Sequence record: OZ035821.1
Strand: one strand, 5' to 3'
DNA: 40,079 bases
Source of the DNA: Kayfunavirus PDP21P1
Shown here: positions 6,013-39,813 of the stretch, in pieces
How positions within the stretch are numbered: position 1 is the first letter of the stretch
How the letters are laid out: every line of letters begins with the position of its first letter
Translations under genes and position numbers: made by a program
The notes under the pieces: generated by a model
The model's database searches: none
What the model was told of the DNA's origin: nothing
Seen by the model: only the letters and a program-made list of their open reading frames with translations

Positions 6013-8694
6013 ATGAGCGTCATCTCTATTGACAGACACGACTTCTCTGATGTGTCGAACGCCATTGAGCCGTTTAACCTGCTGGCAGACCACTACGGGC
6101 AAGACCTTGCAGTAAAACAGCTTCAGCTTGAGCATGAGGCATACACTGAAGGCGAGCGACGTTTCATCAAAAACCTTGAGCGACAGACTGAGCGCGGGGA
6201 ACTGGCAGACAATCAGGTCGCCAAGCCTTTGATGCAGACTCTGGTTCCTAAGATTGCGCAAGCCGTCAGGGAGTGGCATGAAGGCCCAGACGGGAAGCTG
6301 TCAACCTCTCGTCCTAGCGTAGCGTTCACCATGTTGAGCACTGAAGAGAGGGCCGTTAAAGACCGTTCTCTACGCATCTCCTGCGAGTCTGCTGCTGTCA
6401 TCATACTGAAGGTCATCCTCTCCAAGCTGGTCAAGCCTGAAGGGATACCGATTACACCGATGGCCTCCGCGTTAGGTCGCACACTTGAGGACGAAATCCG
6501 CTTCGGTCGCATCCGTGACAAGGAGAAAGAGCACTTCAAGAAGGCGATAGCTGATAACCTGAATAAGCGGGCCGGGGCGTCCTACAAGAAAGCCTACATG
6601 CAAGCGGTCGAGGCATCCATGCTGGAGAAAGGCCAACTGGAAGATGCGTGGGGGACTTGGAGTCCTACAGAGGCTGTCCACGTTGGCATCAAGATGCTCG
6701 AGATTGTCATCCAGTCAACACAACTGGTCGAGCTTAAGCGGTACGGCGCTGGCAATGCAGCGGCTGACGTAGAGATGGTCCACCTGTCAGACTTCTGGGT
6801 CAAGAAGATGGCACAACGAGGATTCAGCCTTGCGGGTATCGCTCCAGTCTACCAGCCTTGCGTCGTTCCACCTAAGCCGTGGACTGGTGTCGTAGGTGGT
6901 GGGTACTGGGCCAAAGGTCGCAGACCACTACCACTGATTCGCTTAGGGTCTAAGTCTGCGGTAGCACGTTACGAAGACGTGTACATGCCTGAAGTATATG
7001 ACGCTGTTAACATTATCCAGAATACACCTTGGAAAGTGAACAAGAAGGTTCTGGACGTGGTGAACATGGTCGAGAAGTTGCACAACACGCCTATTGATGA
7101 CATCCCTCAGATGGAGCCACTGAAGCCTGAGGACTATGTGGGTGAGACTGAAGAAGAACTCAAAGCATGGAAGAAAGCTGCTGCTGGTATCTACCGCCGC
7201 GAGAAGGCCCGACAGTCACGCAGATTGTCGCTGAGTTTTATCGTCAGCCAGGCGAACAAGTTCTCGCAGTTTAAGGCTATCTGGTTCCCATACAACATGG
7301 ACTGGCGCGGTCGCGTCTACGCTGTACCGATGTTCAACCCTCAGGGTAACGACATGCAGAAAGGTCTCCTGACTTTGGCAGTCGGTAAGCCTATTGGCGC
7401 TGATGGTTTCAAATGGCTGAAGGTCCACGGTGCAAACTGTGCGGGTGTTGATAAAGTCACCTTCGAGGAGCGCATCAAGTGGGTGGAAGATAACCACGAC
7501 AACATCATGGCTGCTGCTAAAGCGCCGATGGATAGTATTGAGTGGTGGGGAAAGTTAGACTCTCCGTTCTGTTTCCTCGCGTTCTGCTTCGAGTATGCTG
7601 GCGTAATGCACCACGGCCTTTCTTACTCCTGCTCGCTACCGATAGCGTTCGATGGGTCCTGCTCTGGGATTCAGCACTTCAGCGCGATGCTTCGTGATCA
7701 CATCGGTGGACACGCAGTAAACCTGACGCCATCCGGTAAGGTACAAGACATCTACCGCATCGTGTCCGACCGCATTGAGGAGGAGCTTAAAGTCCTGCTG
7801 GTTAACGGCACGGACAATGAGATGGTAACTCACGAGGACAAGAAAACTGGTGAGATTACCGAACGTCTCAAGCTGGGGACACGAGAGCTGGCCCGGCAGT
7901 GGCTTACTTACGGTATGTCACGTAAGGTCACTAAGCGTTCAGTCATGACTCTGGCCTACGGGTCGAAGGAGTACGGATTCGCAGACCAAGTTTACGAGGA
8001 CATCGTGATGCCAGCGATTGACTCAGGGTCTGGCGCTATGTTCACCGAGCCAAGCCAAGCGTCTCGCTTCATGGCTAAGATGATTTGGGAAGCTGTGAGT
8101 GTGACCGTAGTTGCTGCTGTTGACGCGATGAAGTGGCTTCAGGGTGCTGCCAAGCTGCTGGCTGCTGAAGTGAAGGACAAGAAGACTGGAGAAATCCTGA
8201 AGCCTTGCCTTCCAGTACACTGGGTAACACCTGATGGTTTCCCTGTCTGGCAGGAATACCGCAAGAAGGATACCACGCGTCTGAACCTGATGTTCTTAGG
8301 GTCATTCAACCTTCAGCCTACCGTCAACAAAGGCACGAAGAAGGAGCTGGATAAGCACAAGCAGGAGTCAGGAATTAGCCCGAACTTCGTCCACTCACAA
8401 GATGGTAGCCACCTACGCAAGACTGTAGTCCACACTCACCGCAAGTATGGCGTGATGTCATTCGCAGTGATTCACGATAGCTTCGGGACAATCCCGGCTG
8501 ACGCTGAGTATCTGTTCCGTGGTGTCCGTGAGACTATGGTCGAGACCTACCGCGACAACGATGTGCTGCTTGACTTCTACGAGCAGTTCGAATACCAGCT
8601 TCACGAGAGTCAGCGCGACAAGTTGCCTGAGCTTCCGAAGAAAGGTAAACTGAATATCGAAGACATCTTGTCTTCAGACTTTGCATTCGCTTAA
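6013..8694 (+). CDS. 1: DNA-directed RNA polymerase (single-subunit), T7 gp1 homolog
   Basis: 893 aa. Near-collinear with T7 RNAP as recalled (PWTGxxGGGYWAxGRRPL, FPYNMDWRGRVYA, FCFLAFCFEYAG, HDSFGTIPADA, C-terminal FAFA). Confidence 0.97.
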   Translation: MSVISIDRHDFSDVSNAIEPFNLLADHYGQDLAVKQLQLEHEAYTEGERRFIKNLERQTERGELADNQVAKPLMQTLVPKIAQAVREWHEGPDGKLSTSRPSVAFTMLSTEERAVKDRSLRISCESAAVIILKVILSKLVKPEGIPITPMASALGRTLEDEIRFGRIRDKEKEHFKKAIADNLNKRAGASYKKAYMQAVEASMLEKGQLEDAWGTWSPTEAVHVGIKMLEIVIQSTQLVELKRYGAGNAAADVEMVHLSDFWVKKMAQRGFSLAGIAPVYQPCVVPPKPWTGVVGGGYWAKGRRPLPLIRLGSKSAVARYEDVYMPEVYDAVNIIQNTPWKVNKKVLDVVNMVEKLHNTPIDDIPQMEPLKPEDYVGETEEELKAWKKAAAGIYRREKARQSRRLSLSFIVSQANKFSQFKAIWFPYNMDWRGRVYAVPMFNPQGNDMQKGLLTLAVGKPIGADGFKWLKVHGANCAGVDKVTFEERIKWVEDNHDNIMAAAKAPMDSIEWWGKLDSPFCFLAFCFEYAGVMHHGLSYSCSLPIAFDGSCSGIQHFSAMLRDHIGGHAVNLTPSGKVQDIYRIVSDRIEEELKVLLVNGTDNEMVTHEDKKTGEITERLKLGTRELARQWLTYGMSRKVTKRSVMTLAYGSKEYGFADQVYEDIVMPAIDSGSGAMFTEPSQASRFMAKMIWEAVSVTVVAAVDAMKWLQGAAKLLAAEVKDKKTGEILKPCLPVHWVTPDGFPVWQEYRKKDTTRLNLMFLGSFNLQPTVNKGTKKELDKHKQESGISPNFVHSQDGSHLRKTVVHTHRKYGVMSFAVIHDSFGTIPADAEYLFRGVRETMVETYRDNDVLLDFYEQFEYQLHESQRDKLPELPKKGKLNIEDILSSDFAFA

Positions 8695-10964: not shown

Positions 10965-10998
10965 CCCAGTGGTCTTAGCGGACTGCTGGGTTTCTTTG
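10965..10998 (+). terminator. Intrinsic terminator after the ligase gene (TE-like early terminator)
   Basis: 10-bp stem CCCAGTGGTC / GACTGCTGGG with a 6-nt loop, followed by TTTCTTTG. Same position as the T7 early terminator. Confidence 0.55.
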
Positions 10999-11037
10999 CT
11001 TGTTCTAGCAAGCTATCGTCTGGGCCACCAGCTAGAC

Positions 11038-11060
11038 CCTAAGCTATCACTATAGGACAA
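11038..11060 (+). promoter_or_regulatory. Phage RNA polymerase promoter
   Basis: CCTAAGCTATCACTATA^GGACAA. Confidence 0.7.
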
Positions 11061-14189: not shown

Positions 14190-14393
14190 ATGATTAAACT
14201 TATCGAATTTCTTGGTCGTACGGTGGTGCGTGGCTATCGTCGTGCTGCGGTACTGGAACGAAAGGTAGAAAAGAAGGCTGCCGATGGTGCTGCTCTGGCT
14301 GACAAGCTGACCATCGCGTCACTGGAAGCTGGCATGAAGGCACGTCAAGCTGACACCAAAGCTGACCAGTTGGCTCAGTTCTTCAAAGCCTAA
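14190..14393 (+). CDS. Hypothetical small protein (Ala/Lys-rich, predicted helical)
   Basis: 67-aa ORF with AAGGAG RBS, in the position of T7 gene 3.8 but without an HNH motif. Confidence 0.45.
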   Translation: MIKLIEFLGRTVVRGYRRAAVLERKVEKKAADGAALADKLTIASLEAGMKARQADTKADQLAQFFKA

Positions 14394-14411
14394 ACTATCA
14401 CCTTAGGGATG
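14389..14411 (+). promoter_or_regulatory. Degenerate phage promoter-like element
   Basis: CCTAAACTATCACCTTA^GGGATG; two mismatches in the -4/-3 TATA region, so possibly weak or inactive. Followed by a GGGAC-N10-GTCCC hairpin. Confidence 0.35.
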
Positions 14412-14456
14412 GGACCTTGAGTCTTGTCCCTTTGTTCGCATTTGTGATTAAGAAAT

Positions 14457-14535
14457 GTCTCCATAGCTCAAACGGTAGAGCGGCGGGTCGTTATGGCCTA
14501 TTGCGATTAGGGTTCGAATCCCCGTGGAGACGCCA
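14457..14535 (+). tRNA. tRNA-like element; anticodon arm unresolved
   Basis: Perfect 7-bp acceptor stem (GTCTCCA / TGGAGAC), discriminator G and encoded CCA; canonical D-arm (TA GCTC AAACGGTA GAGC); canonical T-arm (GGG TTCGAAT CCC). The 26 nt between D- and T-arms do not fold into a clean 5-bp stem / 7-nt loop by eye. Possible loop TTGCGAT (anticodon GCG) or GTCGTTA. Confidence 0.45.
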
Positions 14536-14546
14536 CTAAGGAGTGA

Positions 14547-16250
<1,704 letters not shown>

Positions 16251-16427: not shown

Positions 16428-16470
16428 TCTAGACTCAAGGCCATTCACATCGAGTGGCCTTTATGATTAG
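16428..16470 (+). promoter_or_regulatory. Conserved hairpin (AAGGCCA-N11-TGGCCTT), candidate RNase III site upstream of gene 5
   Basis: Flanks (TAGACTCAAGG ... TGGCCTTTATGATTAGAC) are near-identical to the copies at 298-342 and 9018-9063. Confidence 0.3.
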
Positions 16471-16489
16471 ACTAAACGGAGGATTAACC

Positions 16490-18505
16490 ATGTTTGACCT
16501 TAAGAGTATCTGGGGTTCTGACATCGAGACCAACGGTCTCCTTGATACAGTCTCCCAGTTCCACTGCGGGGTCCTGATTAACGCCGAGTCGAATGAGACC
16601 CTTAAGTATGGGGTAGCTCCGATGGTCGGTATCGTCGGTGGCTTCAAAGAGTATGTGCAGAAGGTTGAAGAGATTGCCGCATCACCTGATGGTATGCTGG
16701 TATTCCACAACGGTATCAACTATGACGTCCCGGCTATAGACAAGCTGAAGCGTCTGTACTTTGGGAAACGCTTTAACTTCCCGAAACACAAGATGATTGA
16801 TACCTTGGTGCTGGGGCGCTTGATGTATCCAAACATTAAGTTCTCAGACATGGGCGCGGTGAAAGCTGGTCGCCTTCCACCTAATATGATGGGACGTCAG
16901 TCTCTTGAGGCTTGGGGTTATCGTCTCGGTGAGATGAAAGGTGAGTACAAACACGATTACGTTGCCAAGTGTAAGGCTGAAGGCATCGAATATAAGGCTG
17001 GGGACGAATGGTTGTTCCCGTCTCAGGAGATGCTGGACTATAACGTTCAAGACGTTGTGGTCACACTGGCGTTGTTCAAGAAGTTCCTGACTGACAAGTA
17101 TTACTTCCAGTCTGAAAAGTTCGCTTTCGACCATATTTATGCGTTGCGTCTGGAACATGATGCTGCGTGGACCTGTGCGAAGATGGAACGTAACGGTTAT
17201 CCGATGAACACCGAGATGGTCGAAGGCTTATATCGTGAACTCACTGTAAAACGTGCAGAGCTGCTGGACAAGCTGCGTTCGACTTTCGGTAGCTGGTATG
17301 CACCGAAGGGAGGCAAGGAGTTCTTCAGGCACCCACGGACAGGAAAGGACCTTCCGAAGTATCCGCGAGTCGTGTATCCTAATGTCGGTGGCATCTTTAA
17401 GAAGCCGAAGAACAAAGCTCAACGCTTAGGTCTGGAGCCTTGCGAGTTCGACTCACGAGACACGATGAAGGGAGCACCATTCACTCCAATCACTTACGTT
17501 GAGTTTAATCCGGGAAGCGGAGACCACTTAGCGAAAGTCCTGATGGAGCGTGGCTGGGAGCCTGTGGACTTCACTGACACCGGGAAACCTGTGGTTGATG
17601 ACGAGACGTTAGAACACGTTAAGTTACCAGACGCAGAGGCTCAGGCTTGCGTAGAGCTGGTCCGTGAGTATCTGGTAGTCCAGAAGCGCATTGGTCAGGC
17701 GGCTGAGGGTAAGAACGCATGGTTGAAACTTGTAGGTCAAGACGGACGTATGCATGGTTCAATCAACCCCTGCGGGGCAGTAACCGGACGTGCGACGCAT
17801 AGTGCACCAAACATGGCTCAAGTCCCGGCTAACGGTGCTCCATATGGTGAGACTTGCCGTGGTGCTTTCGGTGCAGCTTGGAACAAGACGGATGGTAAGC
17901 CAGACCCTTGGATTCAAGTTGGTGTGGATGCCTCAGGTCTTGAGCTTCGTTGTCTGGGGAACCGAGCGGCTCCGTTTGATGGTGGTACCTATGCGAGGAC
18001 TGTGGTCGAAGGTGACATCCACTGGGCCAACGCAGTCAACGCTGGGCTAGCACCTAACGTACCACGCGACAAGTCGAGCCACGACCACGATTCTTTCCGT
18101 AACAACGCTAAGACGTTCATCTATGCGTTCCTGTATGGTGCAGGGGCAGCTAAGATTGGACTGATAGTCGGCGGTGGTAAGAAGGAAGGTTCAGCTCTCA
18201 TGAAGAAATTCATTGAGGGTACACCAGCCATCAAGGACCTCAGGGAAGCTGTGAGTAATACGTTAATCTCAGACTCTAAGTGGGTGGACGGAGAGAACAT
18301 CGTTAAGTGGAAACGCCGTTGGCTGCGTGGACTTGATGGTCGCCGTATCCACATCCGGTCACCCCACTCAGCACTGAACGCATTACTTCAAGGTGACGGT
18401 GCGGTGGTATGCAAGCACTGGATTGTTGAGACTGAGCGTATGCTGGAAGCCGAAGGATATGTCCACGGCTGGGATGGAGACTTTGCGTACATGGCATGGG
18501 TGCAT
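16490..18505 (+). CDS. 5: DNA polymerase, exon 1 (T7 gp5 homolog)
   Basis: Start moved to ATG 16490 (GGAGG RBS; MFDLKSIWGSDIETNGLL parallels T7 MIVSDIEANALL). Thioredoxin-binding loop present (GGIFKKPKNKAQR). Exon ends ...DGDFAYMAWVH, directly followed by TAA. Confidence 0.93.
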
Positions 18506-19103
18506 TAACATCATGGTGCACATTAAATCTGGTGAACTCGGTGAACTCCTAATGGGACAATACCGAGCCAAGCCATAGGGAGGATGTATGAGAGGCAAGA
18601 AGTTAATTCTTGAGGCCACTGAGACTGGCTGCATAATCCCTACGTCACATAAATTGAATAAGGATGGATACTTCCGAAAGAGGACTAACGGTGTCCTTGA
18701 GATGTATCATAGAACTGTATGGATTAAAGCTAATGGTCCAATACCTGACGGTTTCGAAGTAGACCACAAGTGTCGTAATAGAGCTTGTTGCAACGTCGAA
18801 CATCTACAAGTATTAGACCGGGACTCACACTTAGTCAAGACCAACAAAGAGCGATACGCTGCTAGGAAGCTAGAAGCACGAGACTACTGGGTAGAGACTG
18901 GGTGTACTGGAACGAAGTTAGCCGAAGTATTCAATGTGTCGTTCTCAGCCGCCTGTGGGTGGATTAGAGAGTGGAAGGCGTAGAGACTATCCGAAAGGAG
19001 TAGGGCCGTGGGTGAGATTCCCACGTAACCCGAAGCGCCAGACAGTCACCTCAAAGACTGATGATATAGTCCGACACTTCCAGTAATGGGAGAATACAGA
19101 AAG
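18506..19103 (+). mobile_element. Group I intron interrupting the DNA polymerase gene; carries an HNH endonuclease ORF
   Basis: Stop codon immediately after exon 1. Exon 2 restores DELQIACRTQEI...LDTEGKIGPTWKECH, the conserved T7 gp5 C-terminus, in frame. 5' splice site after U18505 with P1 pairing (exon GUGCAU : intron GUGCAC at 18516-18521, U.G at the junction). Intron ends in G19103. Possible P10 (intron CAUC 18509-18512 : exon 2 GAUG). Confidence 0.7.
18588..18983 (+). CDS. Intron-encoded HNH homing endonuclease
   Basis: 131-aa ORF within the intron, in a different frame from the polymerase, with GGGAGG RBS. Motif NGPIPDGFEVDHKCRNRACCNVEHLQVL; same family as the ORFs at 9230 and 32898. 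Confidence 0.8.
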   Translation: MRGKKLILEATETGCIIPTSHKLNKDGYFRKRTNGVLEMYHRTVWIKANGPIPDGFEVDHKCRNRACCNVEHLQVLDRDSHLVKTNKERYAARKLEARDYWVETGCTGTKLAEVFNVSFSAACGWIREWKA

Positions 19104-37281: not shown

Positions 37282-39813
37282 ATGTCCACGCTTACACAAT
37301 TCCCTTCAGGAAACACTCAGTACAGGATTGAGTTCGACTACCTAGCCAGGACGTTTGTTGTTGTTACGCTGGTGAATAGCTCTAACCCTACCCTGAACCG
37401 TGTACTGGAAGTTGGTCGAGATTACCGATTCCTTAATCCAACGATGATTGAGATGTTGGTTGACCAATCAGGTTTCGACATCGTTCGTATTCACCGTCAG
37501 ACTGGAACTGACTTAGTGGTAGACTTCAGGAATGGCTCAGTGTTGACAGCTAGTGACCTGACCAATGCAGAGCTTCAGGCTATCCATATTGCAGAAGAAG
37601 GTCGAGACCAAACGGTTGACTTAGCGAAGGAATATGCCGATGCTGCTGGTAGCTCTGCTGGCAACGCTAAGGATAGCGAGGACGAAGCACGCCGAATCGC
37701 TGCGAGTATCAGGGAAGCTGGTCTAATTGGCTATATTACCCGTCGCTCCTTCGAGAAAGGCTACAACGTTACAACATGGAGCGAGGTCCTGCTATGGGAA
37801 GAGGATGGTGATTATTACCGCTGGGATGGTACGCTTCCAAAGAACGTTCCTGCTGGTTCAACTCCTGAAACTTCCGGTGGGATTGGATTAGGTGCGTGGG
37901 TTAGTGTTGGTGATGCTGCTTTAAGAAGTCAGATTTCAAACCCGGAAGGGGCAATACTCTACCCGGAATTGCAGATGGCAAGATGGCGTGATGAGGGTGA
38001 TGTTCGAGGCTGGGGTGCTAAAGGGGATGGTGTAACAGATAGTACGGAGAATATAGCTGCTTCACTAAATTCTCAAAAAGCTGTCGTAGCATCAGAAGGT
38101 GTATTCTCTAGTTCTGGTATTAATAGTAATTACTGTAACTTAGACGGTAGAGGCAGTGGGGTGCTAAGTCACCGTTCCAGTACAGGTAACTACTTAGTAT
38201 TTAACAATCCACGTACAGGTCGCTTAAGTAATATTACGGTAGAAAGTAATAAGGCGACGGATACCACTCAGGGACAGCAGGTATCTCTTGCTGGTGGCAG
38301 TGATGTTACGGTAAGTGACGTTAACTTCTCAAACGTTAAAGGTACTGGTTTCAGTTTAATCGCATACCCTAATGATGCGCCACCTGATGGACTTATGATT
38401 AAAGGCATTCGAGGTAGCTATTCCGGCTATGCTACTAATAAGGCAGCCGGATGCGTACTTGCTGACTCCTCAGTTAACTCCCTCATAGATAACGTCATTG
38501 CTAAGAACTACCCTCAGTTCGGAGCAGTAGAGTTGAAAGGTACAGCCAGTTACAACATAGTCAGTAATGTTATAGGGGCAGATTGCCAGCATGTAACTTA
38601 CAACGGCACTGAAGGGCCAATAGCTCCTTCTAACAACCTTATCAATGGGGTAGTGGCTAATAATCCTAAATATGCAGCGGTTGTTGCAGGCAAAGGTAGT
38701 ACCAACTTAATCTCCGATGTGCTTGTAGATTTCTCAACCTCTGATGCTAGGCAGGCTCATGGTGTTACAGTAGAAGGTTCTGGTAACGTCATAAATAATG
38801 TGCTTATGTCAGGGTGTGATGGTACTAACTCTTTAGGGCAAGCTCAAACTGCTACAATTGCACGCTTTATAGATACAGCTAATAACAACTATGCGTCTGT
38901 ATTTCCTAGCTACAGTGCTACAGGTGTTATTACTTTCGAATCAGGTTCTACCCGTAACTTCGTAGAGGTAAAGCATCCGGGAAGGAGAAACGACCTTCTC
39001 AGTGCTACTGGTACTATTAGCGGTGCAGATACTATTGACGGCACTAATAATAGCAACGTAGTGCACGCCCCTGCATTAGGGCAATACATAGGCAGTATGT
39101 CCGGTAGGTTCGAATGGCGGATTAAGTCCATGTCACTTCCATCAGGGGTTCTTACCTCTGCGGATAAGTACAGGATGCTTGCCGATGGGGCTGTGTCATT
39201 AGCTGTAGGCGGAGGTACTTCTTCTCAAGTACGCCTGTTCACTTCTGACGGCACTTATCGGAATATATCACTTACTAGCAGTAACGTGCGTCTTCCTACC
39301 AGTAGCGAAGGTTATTTGCAGTTAGGTTCTAATGCAATGACCCCAGATAGTACTAATACATACGCATTAGGTTCCGCAAGTCGAGCATGGTCTGGCGGTT
39401 TTACTCAATCAGCATTCACTGTTGTCTCAGATGCTAGGGATAAAACAGAGCCTCTTAATATCTCAGATGCTTTACTGGATGCTTGGTCTGAAGTTGACTT
39501 TGTGCAGTTTCAGTACTTGGACCGAATTGAGGAGAAGGGTGCAGACTCAGCTAGATGGCACTTCGGCATCATCGCTCAGCGAGCTAAGGAGGCCTTCGAA
39601 CGTCACGGTATAGATGCACATCGCTATGGCTTCCTGTGCTTCGACAGTTGGGATGATGTGTACGAGGAAGATGCCAATGGCTCTCGTAAACTGATTACAC
39701 CAGCAGGTTCCCGCTATGGTATTCGTTACGAGGAAGTACTGATATTAGAGGCTGCGTTGATGCGGCGTACTATTAAGCGTATGCAGGAAGCATTAGCTGT
39801 TATGTCTAAGTGA
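37282..39813 (+). CDS. 17: Tail fiber / tailspike: T7 gp17-like N-terminal anchor, beta-helix (pectate-lyase-like) domain, C-terminal self-cleaving chaperone domain
   Basis: N-terminal ~150 aa (FDYLARTFVVVTL, VDFRNGSVLTASDL, AIHIAEEGRD) parallels the T7 gp17 tail-attachment domain. Central region has GWGAKGDGVTDST, typical of pectate-lyase-fold tailspikes. C-terminus (SDARDK...WHFGIIAQRAKEAFE...GIRYEEVLILEAA) fits the peptidase S74 / intramolecular chaperone family. Confidence 0.9.
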   Translation: MSTLTQFPSGNTQYRIEFDYLARTFVVVTLVNSSNPTLNRVLEVGRDYRFLNPTMIEMLVDQSGFDIVRIHRQTGTDLVVDFRNGSVLTASDLTNAELQAIHIAEEGRDQTVDLAKEYADAAGSSAGNAKDSEDEARRIAASIREAGLIGYITRRSFEKGYNVTTWSEVLLWEEDGDYYRWDGTLPKNVPAGSTPETSGGIGLGAWVSVGDAALRSQISNPEGAILYPELQMARWRDEGDVRGWGAKGDGVTDSTENIAASLNSQKAVVASEGVFSSSGINSNYCNLDGRGSGVLSHRSSTGNYLVFNNPRTGRLSNITVESNKATDTTQGQQVSLAGGSDVTVSDVNFSNVKGTGFSLIAYPNDAPPDGLMIKGIRGSYSGYATNKAAGCVLADSSVNSLIDNVIAKNYPQFGAVELKGTASYNIVSNVIGADCQHVTYNGTEGPIAPSNNLINGVVANNPKYAAVVAGKGSTNLISDVLVDFSTSDARQAHGVTVEGSGNVINNVLMSGCDGTNSLGQAQTATIARFIDTANNNYASVFPSYSATGVITFESGSTRNFVEVKHPGRRNDLLSATGTISGADTIDGTNNSNVVHAPALGQYIGSMSGRFEWRIKSMSLPSGVLTSADKYRMLADGAVSLAVGGGTSSQVRLFTSDGTYRNISLTSSNVRLPTSSEGYLQLGSNAMTPDSTNTYALGSASRAWSGGFTQSAFTVVSDARDKTEPLNISDALLDAWSEVDFVQFQYLDRIEEKGADSARWHFGIIAQRAKEAFERHGIDAHRYGFLCFDSWDDVYEEDANGSRKLITPAGSRYGIRYEEVLILEAALMRRTIKRMQEALAVMSK

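Follow-up and report, generated by a model that had tools for sequence, protein, structure and literature searches.

A tRNA-derived, apparently non-decoding element in the gene 4 mRNA leader of Kayfunavirus phages as a candidate RNA-processing signal

INTRODUCTION

The gene 4 mRNA leader of Kayfunavirus PDP21P1 (sequence record OZ035821.1) contains a 79-nt tRNA-like element which, judging from its sequence and that of its relatives, we conclude to be tRNA-derived but non-decoding, because the anticodon arm appears to be replaced by a longer bulged hairpin with a freely varying loop. The element is most likely an RNA-processing signal or a small structured RNA and not a working tRNA. It was detected with ARAGORN and Rfam at positions 14457-14535 on the plus strand of the window, by which we mean the whole stretch of 40,079 nucleotides that was analysed, and lies between the 5' hairpin of a phi3.8-type promoter and the Shine-Dalgarno sequence of gene 4.

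T7-like phages are a textbook case of mRNA processing by RNase III, and to our knowledge they are described as being without tRNAs. Recruitment of RNase P at the leader would, if true, represent a second host-dependent processing route in the T7 family, and the element would then be a bacterial-virus counterpart of the mitochondrial t-elements and of MALAT1 mascRNA. The subject also touches on annotation practice. Pipelines label the Kayfunavirus element inconsistently and entirely miss a second element found in Przondovirus, many phages of the carrier groups are candidates for phage therapy, and 'encodes a tRNA' is a reported genome feature there. Since phages that carry the cassette and phages that lack it both occur in nature, the question lends itself to direct testing.

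RESULTS AND DISCUSSION

Sequence and overall fold of the element

On the plus strand, positions 14457-14535 read GTCTCCA-TA-GCTC-AAACGGTA-GAGC-G-[25-nt central region]-TAGGG-TTCGAAT-CCCCG-TGGAGAC-G-CCA. An earlier note, made from the DNA letters, had recognized a perfect 7-bp acceptor stem with an encoded CCA and a canonical D arm, and all of this is borne out: GTCTCCA (14457-14463) pairs with TGGAGAC (14525-14531), followed by the discriminator G14532 and the CCA at 14533-14535, and the D arm (14466-14481) consists of a 4-bp stem and the loop AAACGGTA with G18 and G19. The T arm had been described as canonical (GGG-TTCGAAT-CCC). This is correct for its core, whereas the full 5-bp stem (arm 14508-14524, loop TTCGAAT) adds a U.G pair and an AxC mismatch to the three G-C pairs. 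The t-element motif GGTTCGAATCC (pattern GGTTCRANYCC) lies inside the T arm at 14511-14521, and the elbow set of a canonical tRNA is complete, with U8, A14, G18 and G19, A21, G53-C61, T54-Psi55-C56 and A58. The middle region, which had been thought 3 nt too long, indeed spans 25 nt from the D stem to the T stem as compared to the normal 22, because the central arm comprises 22 nt instead of the canonical 17 and is followed by a 3-nt variable region.

ARAGORN, run on the whole 40-kb window, predicts one tRNA only, a tRNA-Thr(CGT) at exactly 14457-14535(+), the boundaries that had been drawn before. The Rfam tRNA model RF00005 matches 14457-14532 with 37 bits, above its gathering score of 29 and with E=2e-4 when the whole window is searched; the acceptor, D and T arms are placed with high posterior probability, and the central 18 nt stay unaligned. 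These matches are far more than chance would produce. None of the other Rfam families gave a significant match to the element; RF01684 (mascRNA/menRNA) scored 15.9 bits where 42.5 are required. The acceptor forms a simple helix and is not pseudoknotted as compared to the tRNA-like domain of tmRNA and the 3' TLS of plant viruses, and the element is a four-way junction whose stems do not exceed 7 bp, not the long imperfect hairpin of ~20 bp of a T7-type RNase III site.

The folding energy of the element is not significantly better than that of shuffled sequences (z=-1.3), the central arm alone gives MFE z-scores from -0.3 to -2.0 which are likewise not significant, and in the minimum-energy fold computed for the entire leader (175 nt) the cloverleaf is lost. 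For these reasons, folding energy was not used as evidence. In the leader fold, nucleotides 14482-14494 (GGCGGGUCGUUAU), which make up the loop and the 5' side of the central arm, are paired with the beginning of the gene 4 reading frame (AUGAUGACC...GCC, 14556-14573); such a pairing, as modelled, could be due to chance or represent an alternative conformer.

Two other readings of the sequence were rejected. A second exact match to GGTTCRANYCC at 37855-37865 has no tRNA-like fold and lies within an ORF of 843 aa (37282-39813), and it was discarded as a second element and attributed to chance. A 40-aa ORF with a TTG start (14417-14539) overlaps the element, but its frame is broken by a 1-nt deletion in a metagenomic copy (L180), by a 1-nt upstream insertion in pO91 and by indels in Kc166A, while the RNA pairing is kept; the protein-coding reading was therefore dismissed.

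Promoter, leader and gene 4

A promoter for the phage RNA polymerase, of the T7 phi3.8 type, was identified at 14389-14411 (+) by its match to the consensus and by homology to T7. Its core CTATCACCTTAGGGA at 14395-14409 fits the consensus CTATCAC-N2-TAGGGA, which is found 11 times on the plus strand of the window. By analogy, transcription is predicted to start at G14406, 51 nt ahead of the element. Folding indicated a hairpin of 10-11 bp at the transcript start (14405-14431, +), the counterpart of the T7 phi3.8/R3.8 hairpin and thus a candidate R3.8 homologue. The motif CCCTTTGTTCGCATT which follows the hairpin is shared with T7, and the leader as a whole is homologous to the T7 phi3.8 leader, which reads GGGAGACCACAGCGGTTTCCCTTTGTTCGCATT|GGAGG. 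In T7, the RNase site R3.8 follows closely on the phi3.8 start, and from this point on transcripts are less abundant (PMC6938266). The position of R3.8 relative to phi3.8 was taken from the same paper, and the GenBank records of T7 carry no R3.8 annotation. The element thus appears to be an addition to a leader which already served as a point of RNA processing.

The Shine-Dalgarno sequence of gene 4, AAGGAG, is located at 14538-14543 (+), 3 nt after the CCA. Gene 4 itself extends from 14550 to 16250 (+) and encodes a T7-type primase-helicase with the Pfam domains Helic-prim_T7_N, Toprim and DnaB_C; its ATG at 14550 agrees with the distance of 15 nt from the element given earlier. The element thus adjoins the coding region within the predicted mRNA precursor, transcription being deduced from the promoter consensus.

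The central arm and decoding capacity

In place of an anticodon arm, pairing counts, RNAalifold and single folds all point to a non-canonical central arm at 14483-14504 (+). It is composed of 2 bp (27-28:47-48), a 3-nt bulge AUU, 5 bp (29-33:39-43) and a pentaloop (14490-14494). Among the copies, the bulge measures 2-3 nt. Collection of related sequences yielded 23 copies of the element, representing 9 distinct sequences, 8 of which were used for the pairing tests; the Kc166A copy was aligned in the frame of ARAGORN rather than by MAFFT.

The helix 29-33:39-43 is paired in 100% of the cells over the 8 distinct sequences, as compared to 67.5% for the stem implied by the ARAGORN register (26-30:38-42). 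Of the canonical anticodon stem, pair 29:39 is formed in none of the 8 sequences, 28:40 is broken in three and 30:38 in two. Pair 32:40 occurs as U.G (4 sequences), U-A (3) and C-G (1), and pair 29:43 as G.U or A-U, and the outer pairs 27-28:47-48 survive a 1-nt indel in Kc166A. RNAalifold independently selected the helix 29-33:39-43 with the pentaloop, and the same helix was obtained with all six variants that were folded singly. Co-variation of 32 and 40 as a base pair is incompatible with the anticodon register of ARAGORN.

The isotypes which ARAGORN assigns to orthologous copies are Thr(CGT), Met(CAT), Stop(TTA) and Ser(TGA), in two different registers. The copies with differing calls are 93-99% identical, apart from Kc166A (Ser TGA), which is 78.5% identical. 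No register was found that combines a 5-bp stem, a 7-nt loop, U33 and a purine at position 37. When compared with established identity rules, the element also lacks an anticodon-independent identity set: G3.U70, G-1, a long variable arm and A73 are all missing. The suggestion of the earlier note that this could be a real but atypical tRNA is accordingly disfavoured, with a canonical anticodon stem that fails in every copy, a co-varying pair 32:40 and an 'anticodon' that differs among near-identical orthologues.

Insert boundaries, distribution and the joint site

The window phage is K1F-like (Kayfunavirus, Autographiviridae), with ~94% identity to ST31 and TM1 over 3 kb. Alignment with K1F and about 15 empty sites delimited an accessory insert of 88 nt at 14453-14540 (+), consisting of AAAT, the 79-nt element, C and TAAG. 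The empty sites uniformly read ...GTGATTAAGGAGTGACCAATG, and the filled sites ...GTGATTAAG-AAAT-[79 nt]-C-TAAG-GAGTGACCAATG. The repeat TAAG flanks the insert at 14449-14452 and 14537-14540.

Carriers make up 34 of about 236 related phage records; K1F itself is without the element. Among 80 T7-like gene-4 loci from IMG/VR, it was found in the equivalent of ST31 only, and tRNA calls were obtained for 1 of the 80, in keeping with the earlier remark that tRNA genes are unusual in such phages. One locus (L197) encodes a gp4 that is 99% identical to that of the window, yet the element is absent. It is thus an accessory and dispensable cassette.

A Shine-Dalgarno/start cassette, TAAGGAGTGACCAATG (14537-14552 in the window), is conserved in filled and empty sites, and the insert is found immediately 5' of it. 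This cassette is a recombination joint at which varied accessory units are inserted, either directly 5' of it or between it and gene 4. In SH5, the joint (L196:443-808) harbors an HNH endonuclease gene, the counterpart of T7 gene 3.8; in Kc166A (L003:1607-2146) it contains an ORF of 179 aa without a Pfam match; and in two further loci (L213 and L215) another ORF is present upstream of gene 4. A separate observation concerns gene 5. The annotation of K1F (L001, AM084414) assembles the DNA polymerase CDS from two segments and thereby points to an intervening sequence, whereas the polymerase ORF of the window (16454-18508) appears uninterrupted.

Conservation of the element

Nucleotide diversity in the body of the element, i.e. 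outside positions 32-40, is ~0.005, as compared to 0.06 for the adjacent promoter/leader and ~0.08 for positions 32-40; third codon positions of gene 4 give ~0.12, a figure that is inflated by one non-homologous sequence. Variable columns are rarer in the body (4 of 70) than in the leader (15 of 63; Fisher P=0.005). Among close copies, the apical 9 nt (positions 32-40) hold 6-8 of the 11-13 inferred changes, a clustering with a binomial P between 6e-4 and 2e-5. The acceptor stem of pO91 shows a compensatory change from U2-A74 to C2-G74, and the D arm is invariant except for loop positions 16 and 17, both of which are changed in pO91. In real tRNAs, these are the least constrained positions of the D loop. 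One metagenomic copy (L180, contig CYGL01000127) lacks a single nucleotide on the 3' side of the T stem, where CCCC is shortened to CCC; this may be either a sequencing error or the mark of a damaged copy.

The most distant copy is that of Kc166A, a phage whose genome is 68.8% identical to that of ST31 (PMC8402661). Its D arm and T loop are identical to those of the other copies, and its stem changes keep or repair pairing: G29.U43 became A-U, U32.G40 became U-A, G55-C65 became A-U, and the mismatch A53xC67 became A-U. The encoded CCA is lost in this copy and the acceptor stem is 6 bp. Five acceptor pairs that at first sight seem compensatory in Kc166A were rejected, since they represent a 1-nt slide of the same sequence and not independent events. 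Overall, the covariation comprises few independent events among closely related sequences, mostly transitions in G.U pairs, and the shuffling control ignores the relatedness of the sequences.

As far as can be judged from these sequence comparisons, the body is probably under purifying selection for a tRNA-like shape; the low diversity could in part stem from recent horizontal spread. The earlier alternative of a decayed tRNA is half right. The element is tRNA-derived as proposed, but a body that is about 10 times less variable than the flanking leader, with stem changes that keep pairing, does not fit decay.

Searches for a parent tRNA and further homologues

No parent tRNA was found when 5,426 E. 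coli genomes were searched with the element by blastn, or when 185,579 species genomes were scanned for the exact D-stem/central-arm motif. A gapped pattern with the same acceptor stem, D stem and T loop retrieved only ordinary tRNA-Arg, tRNA-Lys and tRNA-Phe genes, at most 71% identical and with canonical anticodon arms. The 3' end of the element may resemble that of E. coli tRNA-Glu, a likeness which was not used as evidence. Scanning IMG/VR with the D-arm pattern gave generic tRNAs among the matches listed, a more specific pattern returned nothing from this database beyond the ST31 equivalent, and a metagenome scan added two further copies of the element.

Two IMG/VR contigs (L059, minus strand, near 7950, and L032:9942-10020) contain sequences with normal D and T arms in which a central hairpin AGATC-TTTTTTTT-GATCT replaces the anticodon arm. 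By their sequence, these appear to be another non-decoding tRNA-like element in viral contigs.

A second tRNA-like insert in Przondovirus

A covariance model was built from the element and run on the 80 gene-4 loci. This search revealed no further true homologues of the Kayfunavirus element in these loci. Weak full-length matches of 12.9 bits were found at the analogous position in many loci with a gp4 identity of ~61%; such a score corresponds to E=1.7 over 569 kb, and to 6e-4 when the 201-nt leader alone is searched. The loci belong to Przondovirus, the group of Klebsiella phages K11/KP32. Here the empty leader consists of the promoter followed by GGGAGACAATTACGTTTCCCTGTTGTCGC|TTGA|GGAGATTACTTTATG, and in filled leaders ~91 nt stand in place of TTGA, which gives an insert of ~87 nt. 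The insert site, the interval between the phi3.8-type leader hairpin and the next Shine-Dalgarno sequence, is the same as that of the Kayfunavirus element.

The inserted sequence can be written as UGGUCAG-[6-bp arm]-[4-bp arm]-UCGGG-UUCGAUU-CCCGG-A-CUGACCA and folds into a cloverleaf-like RNA of ~70 nt (z=-2.6) with a 7-bp acceptor-like stem and a canonical T arm. It was located at L237:2187-2256 (+; IMG/VR contig 2974501179, equivalent to Klebsiella phage KpV763) and in K11 at EU734173 ~10970-11040. Across six variants the acceptor stem, the T arm and the second arm are paired in 100% of the cells, with three pair-preserving changes, whereas one sublineage has another hairpin in place of the first arm. 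The insert is present in ~145 of 377 records. None of these annotates an RNA, and some place a hypothetical protein over it. The Rfam tRNA model does not reach the Przondovirus insert, of which the T arm alone matches, against the tmRNA model, and we found no literature on it.

The two inserts, both optional and ~88 nt long, thus occupy the same few nucleotides of a homologous leader in two genera. They have in common only the acceptor stem stacked on the T arm, whereas their inner arms differ. The acceptor/T-arm stack is the part of a tRNA that is recognized by RNase P and other tRNA-end enzymes. Both phage elements match the T-arm motif GGTTCRANYCC. They may be either diverged homologues or independent captures.

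Proposed function and alternative explanations

By analogy with known systems, we tentatively favor, with a confidence just short of even, a t-element-like signal for RNase P and the tRNA-processing machinery which would also release a small tRNA-shaped RNA. According to this proposal, a tRNA-derived optional cassette would have been inserted into the gene 4 mRNA leader, giving a transcript that would run from a start near 14406 through the 5' hairpin, the tRNA-like fold (14457-14535) and the Shine-Dalgarno sequence into gene 4. The fold retains the determinants of tRNA-processing enzymes, i.e. a 7-bp acceptor on the T arm, the D-loop/T-loop elbow, the discriminator G and CCA. The 5' cut, at 14456/14457, would be made by RNase P of the host, whose tRNA 3'-end machinery would also cleave the RNA behind the CCA (14535) and trim it. 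Cleavage would remove the 5' leader together with any upstream read-through RNA, the resulting gene 4 mRNA would start a few nucleotides before the Shine-Dalgarno sequence, and a stable free tRNA-shaped RNA of ~76-79 nt would be released.

With U at -1, G at +1, an acceptor/T stack of 12 bp, the elbow nucleotides and G73-CCA, the element would on paper be a complete substrate for E. coli RNase P. The known substrates of bacterial RNase P include tRNA-like structures, phage RNAs and operon mRNAs (PMC11143913), and t-elements of plant mitochondria with the motif GGTTCRANYCC direct cleavage by RNase P and RNase Z beside mRNA ends (PMC1920247). Of the three options offered in the earlier note, i.e. 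an atypical tRNA, a decayed tRNA and a tRNA-like signal for processing of the gene 4 mRNA, the last fits best, because the leader is homologous to that of T7 phi3.8/R3.8 and because a second tRNA-like insert occupies the site in another genus; the cleavage itself is a prediction. Several observations weaken the processing reading: the element is dispensable, being absent from K1F and from a phage with a 99% identical gp4; Kc166A is without an encoded CCA and has an acceptor stem of 6 bp; the minimum-energy fold of the leader loses the cloverleaf, with energies no better than those of shuffled sequences; and the covariation rests on few events, while recent spread could lower diversity. Since T7-family phages already use RNase III at the leader, the need for a second signal may also be doubted.

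The rival that deserves most attention is a neutral relic, i.e. a tRNA gene or fragment that entered a module junction through illegitimate recombination, then lost its anticodon arm, and has since been kept and passed on by recombination among Kayfunaviruses without having a function. We consider this unlikely but a serious contender. The patchy distribution of a dispensable element, the TAAG microhomology at the junction and the presence of other accessory genes (an HNH gene and ORFs without known function) at the same joint would all be expected of such a relic, tRNAscan-based annotations label the element as a pseudogene, and the high identity among carriers could mean that it has spread recently. 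On the other hand, substitutions are unevenly distributed and piled up in the apical hairpin, with a body that is more conserved than the adjacent promoter leader; the stem changes preserve or repair pairing, including those in the distant Kc166A copy; and a second tRNA-like insert is found at the same site in another genus. Decoding by a tRNA with an unusual anticodon arm, either tRNA-Thr(CGU) or, in the other register, a tRNA with a UUA or UGA anticodon that supplements or recodes translation, is very improbable. ARAGORN calls a tRNA, the Rfam score is above the threshold, the acceptor stem, CCA, D arm and T-arm core are intact (the full T stem has one AxC mismatch), and pO91 even has a 7-nt loop CUUUAUG with U at the equivalent of position 33. 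Against this stand the lack of any register with a 5-bp stem, 7-nt loop, U33 and purine 37, a called anticodon which shifts among copies that are 97-99% identical, the pair 32:40 which contradicts the Thr register, the missing anticodon-independent identity set as judged by established rules, and the GenBank pipelines that flag the element as pseudo.

Two further explanations grant the tRNA-like RNA a function other than processing. It might act in trans as a mimic, the released RNA serving as a decoy or sponge for a tRNA-binding host factor such as the anticodon nuclease of a defence system, or an enzyme that modifies or processes tRNAs, with the loop variation reflecting an arms race. The determinants of the L-shape and the CCA are intact, the sole fast-changing part is the loop at the place of the anticodon, and an accessory, patchy distribution is typical of counter-defence genes. 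We nevertheless regard a mimic as improbable: the diversity of the loop (~0.08) is not above that of nearby weakly constrained sites, which relaxed selection fits as well as diversifying selection does, the central arm is not shaped like an anticodon stem-loop, and the Przondovirus counterpart has quite different inner arms. Alternatively, the tRNA-like domain could stay on the mRNA as a cis-acting translational or stability element which either shields the 5' end or serves as the binding site of a tRNA-binding protein through which the access of ribosomes to gene 4 is modulated. The constant spacing to the Shine-Dalgarno cassette in all copies, the location of the element ahead of whichever gene comes first in SH5 and Kc166A, and the equivalent placement of the Przondovirus insert relative to its own Shine-Dalgarno sequence agree with such a role. 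A candidate binding protein is not known, however, and a complete RNase P-type substrate (U -1, G +1, G73-CCA) is, on established knowledge, expected to be cleaved in E. coli, which makes a cis-acting element quite improbable.

Returning to the processing signal that we favor, a wider proposal can be formulated, which we put forward as possible but doubtful. T7-family phages would carry optional 'leader t-elements', non-decoding tRNA-shaped cassettes of ~88 nt at one point of phi3.8-type leaders in at least two genera (Kayfunavirus and Przondovirus), either of independent origin or from an old common ancestor, and these would recruit host RNase P and tRNA-maturation enzymes, thereby resetting the 5' end and the level of the replication-gene mRNAs. 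The tRNA-like RNA set free in this way might, in addition, counteract host defences that target tRNAs.

Comparison with known systems

A 'pseudo-tRNA gene' at the same position has been mentioned for Kc166A, DY1, ST31 and LM33_P1 without further analysis (PMC8402661). This Kayfunavirus 'pseudo-tRNA', also present in GenBank, is the same element, for which the earlier work gave a prediction label only. What is already known is thus that the element is annotated, inconsistently, in some records: existing labels are tRNA-Thr, tRNA-OTHER, tRNA-Pseudo(GTG), 'tRNA' or nothing (GenBank MW748991, OL362275, MT862763 and others). New in this work are the evidence, drawn from sequence comparison, that the Kayfunavirus element is probably non-decoding yet structurally maintained, its definition as an 88-nt cassette at the module joint of a phi3.8/R3.8-type leader, and the finding that another tRNA-like cassette, which is not annotated, recurs at this site in Przondovirus.

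Among processing sites of T7, R3.8 is located in a leader that is homologous to that of the element, running from a phi3.8-type promoter to the gene 3.8/4 block (PMC6938266). R3.8 is an RNA-processing point which sets the level of the downstream class II mRNAs (PMC6938266). RNase III cuts R3.8 as a double-stranded hairpin; the element, in contrast, folds into a tRNA-like four-way junction, lies downstream of that hairpin and is found in some phages only.

In the tufB operon of E. coli and in the tRNA cluster of phage T4, tRNAs are co-transcribed with mRNAs or with other tRNAs. Similar to the element, these are tRNA-shaped units in a longer transcript, and T4 is also a virulent coliphage. The T4 cluster furthermore encodes two extra stable tRNA-like RNAs (PMC11143913). 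The tufB and T4 units are excised by RNase P and 3' processing, which for the phage element is only proposed. The units of tufB and T4 decode, the function of the stable T4 RNAs being unknown, unlike the element, which is without an anticodon arm and lies 3 nt from a Shine-Dalgarno sequence.

The plant mitochondrial t-elements (Forner et al. 2007, PMC1920247) share with the phage element a non-canonical cloverleaf in which the T-arm motif GGTTCRANYCC is kept (GGTTCGAATCC in the phage), and both are found in leaders or trailers of mRNAs. It was proposed, and in part shown, that t-elements direct the cuts by RNase P and RNase Z which make mRNA ends and a small stable RNA (PMC1920247). The t-elements belong to an organelle and not to a phage, and their cleavage has been mapped, whereas for the phage element cleavage is predicted, the D arm is fully canonical and CCA is encoded; the two do not share common descent.

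Eukaryotes offer a further parallel in the MALAT1 mascRNA and MEN-beta elements, where a tRNA-like fold within a long transcript is cut by RNase P, which defines the end of the RNA and frees a small tRNA-like RNA. These RNAs (RF01684) resemble the element in having a tRNA-like fold with a non-functional anticodon arm; they are eukaryotic and nuclear, and neither their sequence nor their model matches the phage element (15.9 bits versus 42.5).
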